Part shown: positions 31,766-58,143 of the stretch, one piece after another | Numbering within the stretch: the stretch's first letter is position 1 | Layout: each line of letters opens with the position of its first letter | Assembly (NCBI GenBank): GCA_963726265.1 | Contig: CAVSBQ010000002.1 | Location: 448,001-512,000, forward strand | DNA: 64,000 bases | Direction of reading: 5' to 3' | Origin: Candidatus Aenigmatarchaeota archaeon | GTDB taxonomy: Archaea > Aenigmatarchaeota > Aenigmatarchaeia > QMZP01 > QMZT01 | Translations under genes and position numbers: made by a program | Notes under the pieces: model-generated | Told to the model about the DNA's origin: nothing | The model's database searches: none | Seen by the model: the letters and a program-made list of their open reading frames with translations, nothing else

Positions 31766-31934
31766 CTAATTAATAATTTGTCTGGGAGTTTTTTAAACAT
31801 TTCCGTTTGTGAAAATAGATTTTTGGAAATATACAAATCAAAGTATTCTTTTTTGTCTTTATTTTTGTCAATTAGAGCTTCCGCTGATAGCGGTTCAAAT
31901 GAAAAAAATAGAAATTAGGCGAGTTGTCCTTTTG

Positions 31935-34900
31935 ACAAGGATCTGTCAGGGTATTGGTTAACGTGGGCTGAATGCCTCGCCGAAGCTTGGCACTTACACC
32001 CCGTTTCCATCAACCTCGTCGTATACGAGACCTTCCAAGGCGCGCCGATACTCGCGTATCAGTTTGCCCAACGGTTACCTATTTTCAGGAGAGGCTTCAG
32101 GCTTAGATGCTTTCAGCCCTTATCCTCAGTGACGTAGCTACCCGGCAGTGCAGGCACAACCGGTACACCAGAGGTCACAACGCACTGTTCCTTTCGTACT
32201 ATGTGCATTCTCCCCTCAGGTAACCAACACCTTCAGCAGATATAGACCATACTGGCTCGCACCGTATTTAACCCAGCTAGCGTGGCTCTTTAATGAGTGA
32301 ACACCTCCACCCTTGGACGCTGCTGCACGTCCAGGAAGAGCCGAGCCGACGGCGGAGAAGCAACGAGCGCGGTCGATTTGACCTCTCACTTCCCGATATT
32401 TTCATCACCGCGGCTTTCGAAAAAGCCGCGGCTCAATAGCCAACAGGTTATAACCTGCTGCTGTCCTGACAAAAAATTTGATACGCACTAAGGCGTACCA
32501 TCTTCTTGTCCTGACTTCGAGAACGAGAAATGAGTTATGGACTCTCACGCGCCACGACTCCATTACCCCCAAGGTAACTTTTCTGACAGAGCTGGCTCCC
32601 AGCTAATGGAGACACAGCGGATCGCTAGGCCACGCTTTCGCGTTAGGATTCCTCGCCTTGCGGAATCCTATCAGGCCGGCTTTTGCCCTTGCACTCTAAA
32701 TTCCGATTTCTGACCGGAATGAGCCGACCTTAGGGCGCCTCTGATCCTTTATCAGAGGCGTACCGCCCCAGCCAAACTGCCCATCAATTGCTGTCCCCCT
32801 AAAGGTAAGCAATATGTTAACGGTGGGTTGGTGTTACATTGACGCCTTCCCCAAACCCGAAGACTTGGGTGCGATGCTCCCAACTACACTATGCGACCAT
32901 CAACATACCGCAACAACAGACTGCAGTAAAGTTCTATGGGGTCTTCTCGTCCCGCTGAAGGACTCCGGGTTATTCGCCGGACAACTAAGTTCGCTAGGTG
33001 TCAGGTCAAGACAGTGGGGATGTCGTTAAGCCATTCATGCAGGTCGACAATTAATCGACAAGGGATTACGCTACCTTAAGACGGTCAGAGTTACCGCCGC
33101 CGTTTACCGGGGCTTGGCTGGTTTTGGCCAGTTTAACACACCGGCACTGGGCAGGCATCAGGAGCTATACAAAGCGTTTCCACCTAGCAGCCCCCTACGT
33201 TTTTGTTAAACAGTCGCAACCCCCTTGTTACTGAGACCTACTCGTTCTGTCTGAGACAGAGGAGTAGGCACCCCTTATACCGAAGGTACAGGGCCAATTT
33301 GCCGAATTCCTTGACCTGACTTCTCCTAATACACCTTCGCCTTTTCAGCGAGGGGCACCAGTGACGGTTCTCGGTACGGTCATGAAAGATCCATTCAGAT
33401 TCCCTTTTCACCGATTCCAGGAGTCAACCGAACGGACATACGCCCGCTATTTCTGGTTTCGCCTGCTTCTCACCATTACGGTACTCCACAGGTTTCGCCA
33501 GTTAATCACCGAAGTGATCGGCATATCCCAAAATGTCAGGAATCAGACTTGTGTCGCCACACGTACTTCCATGGTGCAGGAATATTAACCTGCTTCCCTT
33601 TCGATAAGTTCCAGTTGGGGCTTGTCTTAGGACCGACTAACCCTCAGATGACGACCATTGCTGAGGAACCCTTGCCCTTTAGGTGGTGGAGTGTCTCACT
33701 CCACTATTGTTGCTACTATCAGCAAGATCCTTGTTCCTGTAAGGTCCATTCCCTCTTACGAAGAAACTTCTGCCCTACCAGGACACCTCTCTACCATAAT
33801 CCTTTCGGAATCTAAGATATCGGTACCAAACTTAGTCCCGTCCATTTTCAAGGCCCTCAACCTAGATAGGTGAGCTATTACGCTTTCTTTGAAGGGTGGC
33901 TGCTTCTAAGCCGACCTCCCTATTGTCTATGGGTGAAGACGCTTTTCATCACTTAGCTTGGATTTAGGGACCTTAATCTTAGGCTGGGTTCTTGCCCTTT
34001 CGGATACTGAGCTTACCCCAGTACCCCCACTCCGGCCTTCTACGGAGGATGGTAGATTCCGAGTTTGACAGTGCAACTGAACCTTTCGGTTCTTGGTTGC
34101 CCAATCAGTATCTATACCCTGCCATCTTCCTCCGGCCAGGCTATGCTGAGGCATATTTCGAGAGGAACCAGCTATTGCTGAACGCGATTAGCATTTCACT
34201 CCTAGCCCCAGGTCACGTGAGCGATTTGAATCTCAGCATCTCTATCGGGCCTCCATCTAGCTTTCGCCAGACTTCACCCTGCCAAGGGCTAGATCGTCCA
34301 GCTTCAGGTCTTACCCCTGTGACTTTAGGCTCTTTCAAACCTGACCGCCTGACGGCACAAAGCCGATGCGCGGTTCTTGCTTTCGCTGCGGGTACTTGAA
34401 TTACCCTCGCCACAGAAATAAACTCCTTGCCGCGTGTTTCCGCACGGGCGACAAAACTCCTGCAAGCAGGAGCCTTGCCTACCTATAATTACATGGTTTC
34501 AGGCTCTTTTCATCTCCGGTTAGAGATACTTTTCATTTTTCCGTCACCGTACTAGTGCGCTATCGGACTCGGGGTGTATTTAGGATTGGGAGTTACTGGC
34601 TCCCGTATTCCCAATGGATTTTCAACCAATGGTACTCTGGATACCCGCTATCAACCTTCTTCCTTGCTCATACGGGGCTATCACCCTCTACGGCAGATCT
34701 TTCCAGATCACTTTTGATTGAGAAGTTAGGCTGAGCACGGGTCCGAACCCCACATCTCTCCTGGCTTTCACCAAGAGATTCGGTTTGTCCTTTTCCCTTT
34801 TCAATCGCCTCTACTAGGGGAATCACGATTGTTTTCTTTTCCGGCCCTTACTAAGATGTTTCAATTTAGGGCGTCACCGATGACCCGAAGGTCAACGACA

Positions 34901-35033
34901 TATGTCAGGAAGTCCCATTAGGAGATCCCGGGTTCAAAGGCTGCTTGCGCCTACCCCGGGCATATCGCAGCTTGCCACGTCCTTCTTCGGCCCCCGAACC
35001 AAACCATCCACCACGTAACGTAGCAGATCCTTT
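31935..35033 (-). rRNA. rrl: 23S rRNA (ends approximate; contains one intron)
   Basis: recognisable P-loop, A-loop, H69, GTPase centre and SRL; flanked by processing stem 31916-31945 / 35024-35053 with perfect BHB (UGAC/GUCA, AAA bulges). Confidence 0.97.
32378..32536 (-). other. 159-nt BHB intron in 23S helix 89 loop (after E. coli 2477)
   Basis: removal restores GAGUCCAU|AUCGAC colinear with E. coli; 11-bp closing stem; bulges AUA and AAA predict the same cut sites; no ORF. Confidence 0.88.
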
Positions 35034-35564
35034 TTGTCAGGACAACTCGCCTATGTTTCATCATCAAGGAACTCAAATGGTGTTCACTTTTTCATAGAAA
35101 GCGAAAGACGCAAGCTCGCGCATGCGTCTGTCTGCCTCCTCAAGTGACTGTCTGAAGAGTCATCATTCCTCTCCAATCCACCCGCCAAAATTTATTGGCG
35201 AGCTTCATATACCGACATGCAGAATTGCATCGCCGCATACCGGTTTCTTTGTAATTTGGTTAACATGAACTAGCTACCAATAGCTTGTTCAGAATAAGAC
35301 AGACATACTCGCGTACGCCACCCTCTGACTGCATGACCTCTTTCCCTGTCACGGATCAAAGGCCAAGTCTCTGAACAGCTTTGGATAGCCATTGTTAGGA
35401 AACGTATTGCATCACTGCAAGTTTCCGTAAGCGTGAGCAACTATTATATTGTCCCGGGACATTTAAATACATTTCTGGGCCAGTTTTCAGTTGCCGTTTC
35501 TTGCTTTCGTTTTCCGCTAATTCCGCTTCAGCGGAATCTTAAGCCTTTTTTTAAAAGGCTTTTA

Positions 35565-56853: not shown

Positions 56854-58071
56854 CTAAACCTTGTATCTCAGAATCCCGCCTATGCCGCCCATTTCTTTGA
56901 GCTGGCTGCCTTCTTTCGTGTCGGACGATATCATCTCGACGTTGGTGCTCATTTCTTCAGCCATCTTCACTATCTCGTCCGTCAGGTCTTTCTCGGCCAG
57001 GATTTCGTAAAGCTCGCTGCACTTCGGGCATTTCAGGCTCTCGAGCTTGTCCCTCGCCATCACGGCGTCGCTCTCCTCTCCGCATTTGGGGCACTTGACC
57101 CTCGCCTTCACCCAGTCGAGCTTGTCGGAAACCAGCAGGATTTCCATGGTGCCTGCCTTTAGCGCGTCGATAATCTCCTTGAGCCCGTATACCGCGAGGC
57201 CGGAATCCTTGCCGAGCTCGTTGAAAAAGCGCATGAGCAGCTTCTTCTCCTTCATCACGCTCGCTTCCTTGAGCGCTTCCTCGGACCTGTTGACCGCTTC
57301 CTCGAGGCCGTATTCCCCCATGTATGATATGTCGACGACGCCGATGACCTTTTTCTGGAAGTCGTATCTCAGAAACCCGCCTGAAGCGAATGTATCTTTC
57401 ACCGGGCCCGGCCCTCCCACTATGATGCCTATCAGGTCTTTCTGCTCATCGAACTGTTTGGAAGCGATGTCGCCGACCTTCTTCATGAAGTCGTTGAGCA
57501 GGCCCTCGCGCACGCGCGCATATCTGGCTTGGGACCACCCACCTGCCTCTGTTTTTCCTGGCACAAGAGAGTCCATATGCTTCAGCGGCCTGACCTTCTT
57601 GCCGTGCAATATCCCTACGTCCGCCTCGGACTTGTCGATTATCACGATGCCGAATATCTCGCGCTCGCGTATCATCTCCTTCAGCGGGTCGAGCACGAAT
57701 TTCTGGTCGCACCAGTAAAGCCGCTGTTTCATTGGTTCCGGCGGCTCAAGGGCGAATATCTCGACATCCGAAACTCCTTCGCGCTCAGAGATGTTTCCGG
57801 AAAAAACGACCAGGCCGTTCGGAGGCGTTTGCTTATACAGTTTCAGGTGCTGGGTTATGCGCTCGAGCGCGGACATGACGTTCTTGCGCACGGACTTCGA
57901 CTTGATGTTTTGGGCGGTCGACTTCTCGTTGCTTATCTGCTCGACCACTTTAAAGAGGTTGAAGCCCGCAGGAATGTAAACGGAAACGAGCTCCGTATGG
58001 CGACCCTTGAACTTGTCCAGTTCTTCGACTAAGTCTTTCAATCTTCTCTTCCGTATGTCCTCATGCGTCAT
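56854..58071 (-). CDS. prf1: archaeal peptide chain release factor aRF1 with GGW replacing GGQ
   Basis: GRHTELVSVYIP, NIKS, YWCDQKF, Zn-ribbon in domain 3, C-terminal GGIGGILRY. Confidence 0.95.
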   Translation of the reverse strand: MTHEDIRKRRLKDLVEELDKFKGRHTELVSVYIPAGFNLFKVVEQISNEKSTAQNIKSKSVRKNVMSALERITQHLKLYKQTPPNGLVVFSGNISEREGVSDVEIFALEPPEPMKQRLYWCDQKFVLDPLKEMIREREIFGIVIIDKSEADVGILHGKKVRPLKHMDSLVPGKTEAGGWSQARYARVREGLLNDFMKKVGDIASKQFDEQKDLIGIIVGGPGPVKDTFASGGFLRYDFQKKVIGVVDISYMGEYGLEEAVNRSEEALKEASVMKEKKLLMRFFNELGKDSGLAVYGLKEIIDALKAGTMEILLVSDKLDWVKARVKCPKCGEESDAVMARDKLESLKCPKCSELYEILAEKDLTDEIVKMAEEMSTNVEMISSDTKEGSQLKEMGGIGGILRYKV

Positions 58072-58143
58072 ATTTATCACTTGTCTCGACGGGTTAAATA
58101 AAAGCTAAAATAAATTTAACGGGCCTCTGCTTAAAAAGCATTG

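Follow-up and report, generated by a model that had tools for sequence, protein, structure and literature searches.

The release factor gene and its catalytic loop

The stretch of DNA analyzed here, which we refer to as the window, is a 64,000-nucleotide segment (positions 448,001 to 512,000 of contig CAVSBQ010000002.1) of an Aenigmatarchaeota genome (G000; DPANN, 1.13 Mb in 4 contigs, 88% complete), and on its minus strand it carries a gene for the archaeal release factor aRF1 (56854..58080) in which Trp takes the place of the catalytic Gln of the GGQ motif. The encoded protein is 408 aa long when read from a GTG start and 405 aa when read from the ATG at 58071; the shorter form, with Met4 as its first residue, is that of the database copy (P0002). 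The codons GGT GGG TGG TCC CAA (57529..57543, minus) specify G180, G181, W182, S183, and Q184, so that minus-strand translation across 57543-57529 yields GKTEAGGWSQARY, and the TGG codon of W182 (57535..57537, minus) is at the site of the catalytic, normally N5-methylated Gln. The GG of the tripeptide that marks class-I release factors is kept and only its third residue differs. In an indel-free alignment with Halobacterium aRF1 (4af1) and human eRF1, W182 falls in the column of their GGQ Gln, and Q184, the “+2” Gln, in that of the Ala of GGQSA. Across 60 sequences (alignment A1) the loop residues G180, G181, S183, R186, and R189 are invariant. The motifs that read the stop codon are intact, NIKS at residues 58-61 (57898..57909, minus) and YxCxxxF, present as YWCDQKF, at residues 122-128 (57697..57717, minus). 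All three eRF1 domains are recognized by Pfam (eRF1_1, eRF1_2, and eRF1_3 at 64.6, 118.3, and 91.9 bits, respectively), and TIGR03676, the NCBIfam aRF1 equivalog, matches with 474 bits against a cut-off of 234.7. Domain 3 also contains a zinc-ribbon-like CPKC...CPKC insert (C330, C333, C351, and C354; 57019..57093, minus), in which C333 and C354 hardly vary and C330 and C351 do not vary at all across alignment A1, and which gives weak Pfam and NCBIfam zinc-ribbon matches.

An artefact at 57535-57537, be it a sequencing or assembly error or the decoding of TGG as Gln, is an explanation to which we attach practically no weight. TGG recurs at the site in dozens of independent assemblies, specifically in 39 of the 41 searched genomes of the window's order, the other two being GGQ, and 119 members of P0001-P0121, a set of 121 proteins that includes two from the window itself, have GGW. 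Among the listed differences of public-run contigs (Logan) placed on the site, none falls on the codon, where X1 has a summed depth of 34.8, diverged relatives included, and which lies outside the coverage of X2 and of most of X3. With respect to decoding, a TGG-encoded Trp of ribosomal protein uL3 aligns to a conserved Trp in two solved archaeal uL3 chains and a tRNA-Trp(CCA) gene was found in the genome, so TGG is ordinary Trp in G000. Moreover, recoding of TGG to Gln does not account for the loop because sister lineages carry ATG, TAY, TTY, or GCN at the site, and these Met, Tyr, Phe, and Ala codons are not convertible to Gln by any single recoding. The GGWSQ loop of the window aRF1 is thus genuine. 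An earlier note on this DNA had read GGWSQ in a full-length aRF1 with intact stop-reading motifs and had judged a miscall unlikely; both statements hold, and CAG or CAA in place of the TGG codon is not among the listed differences.

The same note had named a canonical GGQ aRF1 elsewhere in the genome as the finding that would overturn it, and a genome search found no second aRF1 in G000, nor any bacterial release factor domain, the top PF00472 match being 13.7 bits. The only other eRF1-fold gene is a pelota-like open reading frame (ORF) of 349 aa (G000:C2:894883-895530). Likewise, no second aRF1 match was seen in the 41 genomes at E<=1e-20 or in a wider set of 151 genomes at E<=1e-30, intein-split genes aside. 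An AlphaFold model of the window aRF1, built from 60 relatives, has a mean predicted local distance difference test (pLDDT) score of 86 overall and about 67 for loop residues 171-190, and the predicted fold resembles eRF1 of termination complexes (5lzt and 3j5y; template-modelling (TM) score 0.81) and aRF1 itself (4af1; E 1.6e-40). Balon and Pelota chains match the model at TM 0.25-0.5 with 12-19% identity, and the protein scores 91 bits with the Pelota profile TIGR00111, below its cut-off of 177.65.

These comparisons bear on the possibility that the window protein is a Balon-like hibernation or rescue paralogue rather than a release factor, for which its secondary Pfam matches to baeRF_family10 (56 bits) and, in the middle domain, acVLRF1 (51 bits) might be cited. 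However, NIKS and YxCxxxF are kept, and the protein scores far under the cut-offs of the hibernation families (43.4 bits against 320 for the Rv2629 family and 30.6 against 480 for the MSMEG_1130 family). The model matches Balon structures poorly (TM 0.25-0.31), and the protein is the sole aRF1 of its genome and is placed among GGQ aRF1 orthologs in the tree described below. In addition, archaeal Balon candidates are defined, in the available part of a 2026 paper, as proteins without NIKS that occur alongside a separate aeRF1 (PMC13324472). We consider a Balon-like identity to be highly improbable.

Distribution of the Gln-less loop and of the Gln methyltransferase

The phylum sample of 151 genomes combined with the first 41 amounts to 166 genomes, in 159 of which the aRF1 motif could be read; among the seven others, three (G068, G087, and G128) gave no aRF1 match at E<=1e-30 and four (G081, G092, G093, and G110) gave split matches. 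The tally is 61 GGQ, 61 GGW, 33 GGM, 2 GGY, 1 GGF, and 1 GGA. In a FastTree phylogeny of 155 phylum sequences and eight outgroup aRF1 proteins, the phylum sequences form a single group (support 100, starred) apart from the outgroup, and within it lie an all-Gln clade of 55 rows (98, starred), a non-Gln clade of 49 rows (96, starred) with M, W, Y, F, or A at the site, the window's order with 50 rows (99, starred), and one GGW singleton, the branching order among these four groups being unresolved. The window's order contains 47 W and 3 Q sequences, and this grouping of GGQ with GGW genes is as expected of orthologs. The tree requires a minimum of three changes between Gln and non-Gln and eight residue changes. 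An IQ-TREE “quick” tree of 62 rows is consistent with it and places the order's three GGQ genes inside the GGW genes, and an approximately unbiased (AU) test does not reject monophyly of GGW within the order (p 0.387). The GGQ genes of the order may therefore reflect either reversal to Gln or repeated loss of Gln around them. The Gln-less loop is a lineage-wide trait that is fixed across entire families.

In canonical factors the GGQ Gln is methylated by Mtq2, and the earlier note had suggested a search for this enzyme. Using profile TIGR00537 with its cut-off of 87 bits, which was exceeded in four archaeal control genomes, no Mtq2 was found above cut-off in G000, where the top match is 23.6 bits, and Trm112 was found (35 bits, cut-off 22). 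Among the 61 GGQ genomes of the phylum, Mtq2 is above cut-off in 55 and weaker in two, and four have none, whereas the 98 non-Gln genomes include two above cut-off, five weaker, and 91 with none. The two weaker matches in GGQ genomes, of about 80 bits, cover the full model and have the NPPY motif. On the non-Gln side, the above-cut-off match of G034 is a protein of 379 aa that reads NGPT where NPPY is expected, that of G064 is a 384-aa ORF whose partial-match architecture is like that of G034, and an 83-bit match in G024 has NLPF. In the window's order, an NPPY-type Mtq2 is present in exactly the three GGQ genomes (G038, G029, and G127). The Mtq2 tree, from which three of the 24 loci (G125, G138, and G131) are omitted as they have no ORF with [ND]PP[YFW] under the filter used, is poorly resolved, and the three Mtq2 sequences of the order cluster in it with an SH-like approximate likelihood-ratio test (SH-aLRT) value of 87, unstarred.

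The pattern is repeated in a second DPANN phylum. A GGW representative from a broad sequence search (P0179) belongs to a Candidatus Iainarchaeum metagenome-assembled genome (MAG), and among 31 genomes of its phylum the motif was read in five GGW and 21 GGQ genomes, while four intein-bearing loci (L226-L229) lacked the motif region. The five GGW genomes share the loop GGWSQ[RK]RFER and none of them has Mtq2, compared with 17 of the 21 GGQ genomes. This is an independent repeat of the situation in Aenigmatarchaeota, and loss of Mtq2 accompanies loss of the catalytic Gln in both phyla. The broad search, which covered 1.84 billion representatives, also returned GGM, GGF, GGE, GGA, and further GGW aRF1-like sequences, the non-Gln representatives including P0149, P0154, P0158, P0210, P0213, P0225, P0249, P0263, and P0267. 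The last of these is an aRF1 with GGESARRF (NCBI WP_455278356.1) filed under the bacterial name [Eubacterium] cellulosolvens, and it probably derives from an archaeal contig within a bacterial assembly.

Several other features of these genes were seen in the course of the analysis. Many aRF1 genes are interrupted by an intein directly after the third motif residue (GGx|C...HN|S), on GGQ, GGW, and GGM backgrounds alike. The inteins come in two sizes, full-size ones of about 500 aa that include a LAGLIDADG endonuclease and a helix-turn-helix, and mini-inteins of about 130-160 aa, with examples at L059 (G009), L060 (G008), L062 (G033), L063 (G029), L073 (G108), and L170-L181, and in P0109 and P0122, where Pfam recognizes Intein_splicing and LAGLIDADG_3. 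NIKS is changed to NVKS, NVKD, NVKN, NVQS, NVQA, or NVQG in several families, mostly in GGQ genes and in some GGM and GGW genes (for example L080, L086, and L144-L156 in the first phylum and L207, L208, and L221-L225 in the second), and the Methanocellales aRF1 L196 likewise has NVQS. Finally, the aRF1 matches G021:C150:14718-15935 and G137:C15:21003-21962 contain one in-frame TGA each, which may reflect the edge of an alignment, an error, or recoding.

The peptidyl-transferase centre and the +2 Gln

The earlier note had suggested that the unusual loop fits an altered peptidyl-transferase centre (PTC), and the 23S rRNA gene lies in the window itself (31934..35035, minus; G000:C2:479934-483035; RF02540, 2499 bits). 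It was compared with the genes of nine other genomes, three of them GGW (G004, G024, and G098), two GGM (G060 and G075), and four GGQ (G056, G038, G131, and G122); an RF02540-type search of G149 gave no 23S match. In six realigned sequences, the UAA of GAUAAC, GUCGGCUC, GGGUU, and the A of ACAG/CCAG are unchanged, and these we take to be the peptidyl-transferase core in E. coli numbering. The window's order has apparently paired changes, GAUAAC to G[A/G]UAAU and UCGNUGUCGG to CCGCCGUCGG, but its GGQ member G038 has them too, and the GGW family f11 (G098) has the usual GAUAAC. Across the ten genes, none of the rRNA changes was seen to follow the GGQ state. An altered PTC as the partner of Gln loss was accordingly rejected, since the 23S differences track taxonomy and not the GGQ state, and this part of the earlier interpretation is not supported.

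The paired changes of the order (GAUAAC to G[A/G]UAAU and UCGAUGUCGG-type to CCGCCGUCGG; 32250-32990, minus), seen in G000, G004, G024, and G038, affect second-shell sequence of the peptidyl-transferase region that is presumably invariant otherwise, and are apparently compensatory. At the A of UCG-A-UGUCGG, presumably universal, all compared Aenigmatarchaeota have U or C. Domain V of the G000 gene contains an insert of about 160 nt (about 32378-32536, minus) just past the central-loop strand that holds GGUAAU, and at this site the insert is longer in G004 and absent in G038, G056, and G131. Elsewhere, G098 has an insert of about 127 nt that splits GAU|AAC, and the rRNA genes of G060, G075, and G122 extend to 3.6-4.3 kb. 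These inserts are probably rRNA introns or expansion segments.

In Aenigmatarchaeota, the substituted residue is followed by S-Q in 77 of the 84 uninterrupted non-Gln aRF1 genes, compared with four of the 54 GGQ genes of the tree set, and in the broad representative set the corresponding figures are 9/11 and 18/76. The position five residues past the substituted one differs as well, as 75 of 83 non-Gln genes have Tyr there and 48 of 54 GGQ genes have Phe, and in the window's order these positions change together, the GGQ members having SAARF and their GGW kin SQARY. In the second phylum, S-Q follows W in the GGW clade, while the GGQ relatives have S-S, S-A, S-H, or S-K. In keeping with what the earlier note had stated for Vms1-like relatives, GGxSQ, or GxuQ with a tiny residue before the Gln, is given as the motif of the aVLRF1 and acVLRF1 families by Burroughs and Aravind (2019; PMC6514570).

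Such data could be taken to mean that the Gln is simply shifted in register, Q184 being the catalytic residue at the PTC as in the GGxSQ loops of VLRF1 and W182 a mere spacer. We regard this strict form as unlikely, although of the rival explanations it is the one that the data come closest to favoring. Seven lineages that are nested among S-Q kin have no Gln at the +2 position (GGWSAN five times, GGWSAS, and GGMSAR) and nevertheless keep a single intact aRF1, and hence the +2 Gln is not indispensable. The loop has no indel relative to GGQ factors, whereas VLRF1 proteins are described with a longer one (PMC6514570). S-Q is already common on GGQ backgrounds (24%), so part of the pattern is inheritance, and the independent contrasts within the phylum number only two or three (sign test, p 0.5). 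In the AlphaFold model a helix begins at residue 182, which would place Q184 within the helix. Of the earlier proposal that termination uses a Gln shifted by two residues, what survives is the association of S-Q with Gln loss and its repeat in the second phylum; that this Gln is generally required does not, given the seven lineages without it.

A proposed mechanism and its relation to known systems

We now put forward a mechanism for release by these factors. Four features of the window aRF1 lead us to propose a functional factor whose loop is still active at the PTC: the gene is present in single copy, the domain that reads stop codons is intact, the loop invariably has its GG, S, and R residues, and the pattern is found lineage-wide. 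Specifically, we estimate a probability of about two in three that it is a working release factor that would hydrolyze peptidyl-tRNA without the canonical methylated Gln, for which Trp would substitute. That hydrolysis might proceed without this residue is proposed on two grounds, the tolerance of bacterial RF1 in vitro and a published packing role of the Gln. As to the first, Shaw and Green are said to have found in 2007 that most Gln substitutions in bacterial RF1 retain much of the hydrolysis rate. As to the second, the Gln side chain has been assigned “a packing role” in structural and biochemical work, in which the groups that hold the water are the main-chain NH, the side-chain O, and the 2'-OH of A76 (PMC5799190). 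In our mechanism, peptidyl-tRNA hydrolysis would be driven by the glycine backbone positioned in the PTC, and methyl-Gln would be replaced in its packing function by a bulky hydrophobic side chain (Trp, Met, Phe, or Tyr). The +2 Gln of the VLRF1-type GG-x-S-Q loop would probably help to hold the water, as a frequent but dispensable helper. Mtq2 would have been lost once there was no Gln left to methylate, or, in the alternative order, its loss would have come first in a shrinking genome and would have favored a residue that packs without methylation.

Several considerations weigh against this proposal. Replacing the Gln of yeast eRF1 or E. coli RF2 kills the cells or harms them severely in vivo, and because of these effects a GGW factor cannot be taken for granted to be active. 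The activity of the GGW and GGM factors is read from sequence and from a model whose loop is of moderate confidence (pLDDT about 67, residues 171-190), and from the same material we infer that W, M, F, and Y would pack and that the +2 Gln would act as a helper. No RNA run was listed that contains the stretch. The independent events are few, with two or three contrasts in the first phylum (p 0.5) and one in the second. Most of the genomes are MAGs that are 77-98% complete, and there are also GGQ genomes, four in each phylum, in which no Mtq2 is detectable.

Another possibility is that the factor reads stop codons without hydrolyzing, the peptide being freed in some other way, for example by a peptidyl-tRNA hydrolase once the ribosome has been split, or by an unrecognized hydrolase. 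This would fit the absence of the presumed catalytic residue, and in a few lineages of any amide side chain in the loop, and it might suit reduced DPANN genomes of 0.4-1.9 Mb that are probably host-dependent. Yet a loop that has lost its task in the PTC would not readily be expected to keep its GG, S, and two R residues invariant, and beyond the pelota-like ORF the window genome has no other gene with an eRF1 or bacterial release factor fold. We judge such a non-hydrolyzing factor to be very unlikely.

The proposal that Trp substitutes in a working factor can be extended to a wider statement, which we offer tentatively, the odds being somewhat against it in this full form. Two DPANN phyla would independently have rebuilt the loop as GG-hydrophobic-S-Q and dropped Mtq2, with the bulky residue packing and the unmethylated +2 Gln positioning the water, so that a loop design of the VLRF1 type would now serve in ordinary termination. 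In the few lineages that went on to lose the +2 Gln as well, the loop of a natural release factor would then be devoid of amide side chains. 

GGQ is treated as the one universal feature of two unrelated release factor folds, and the roles of the Gln side chain and, most of all, of its methylation in archaea and eukaryotes are debated. The lineages described here amount to a natural experiment, in that members of two phyla live with the Gln replaced by Trp, Met, Tyr, Phe, or Ala and without Mtq2. Their sequences permit one to ask whether the Gln is needed in vivo, whether a hydrophobic residue can serve for methyl-Gln, and whether the +2 Gln compensates. There is also a practical consequence, as annotation that separates release factors from Balon- or Pelota-like paralogues by the presence of GGQ would misfile the non-Gln aRF1 genes. 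Searches of open-access PubMed Central (PMC) and bioRxiv full text, supplements excluded, found no report of a Gln-less aRF1 or of archaea that have lost Mtq2; such variants might appear in Figure S1 of PMC6514570.

In comparison with known systems, the window protein is closest to canonical aRF1/eRF1 (TIGR03676; 4af1, 1dt9, and 5lzt), with which it shares three domains, NIKS, YxCxxxF, single copy number, a loop with GG followed by S..R..R, an orthologous position in the tree, and, as predicted, the fold. It differs in having Trp, or in its relatives Met, Tyr, Phe, or Ala, in place of a Gln that is described as universally conserved and as methylated in all three domains of life (PMC6144793, PMC5799190), and in the absence of Mtq2. 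Methylation of this Gln by Mtq2-Trm112 (HemK2) has been demonstrated for Haloferax volcanii aRF1, and that paper reports orthologues of Mtq2 for all archaea, suggests that methylation of aRF1 is a general feature, and notes that its role “remains to be clarified” (PMC6144793). The window genome resembles the Haloferax system in that Trm112 is kept, and the GGQ relatives retain an NPPY-type Mtq2, but it is unlike it in that there is no above-cut-off Mtq2 in 96 of the 98 non-Gln genomes of the first phylum or in any of the five of the second. The claim that all archaea have Mtq2 hence needs to be qualified.

With the VLRF1/Vms1 hydrolases the window aRF1 shares the GG-x-S-Q loop, as given in PMC6514570, and a secondary acVLRF1 match in the middle domain. 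Those proteins, by the same account, have no stop-reading domain, act in ribosome rescue, and have a longer loop (PMC6514570), whereas the window aRF1 has a full N domain with NIKS and no loop indel, and scores 46.7 bits with acVLRF1_NCBI against a cut-off of 125. Finally, the hibernation factors Balon, Msmeg1130, and Rv2629 (8v9j and 8rd8) have the superfamily fold in common with it, but they are bacterial proteins that lack NIKS, occupy idle ribosomes, and have low similarity to the window protein in both sequence and fold.

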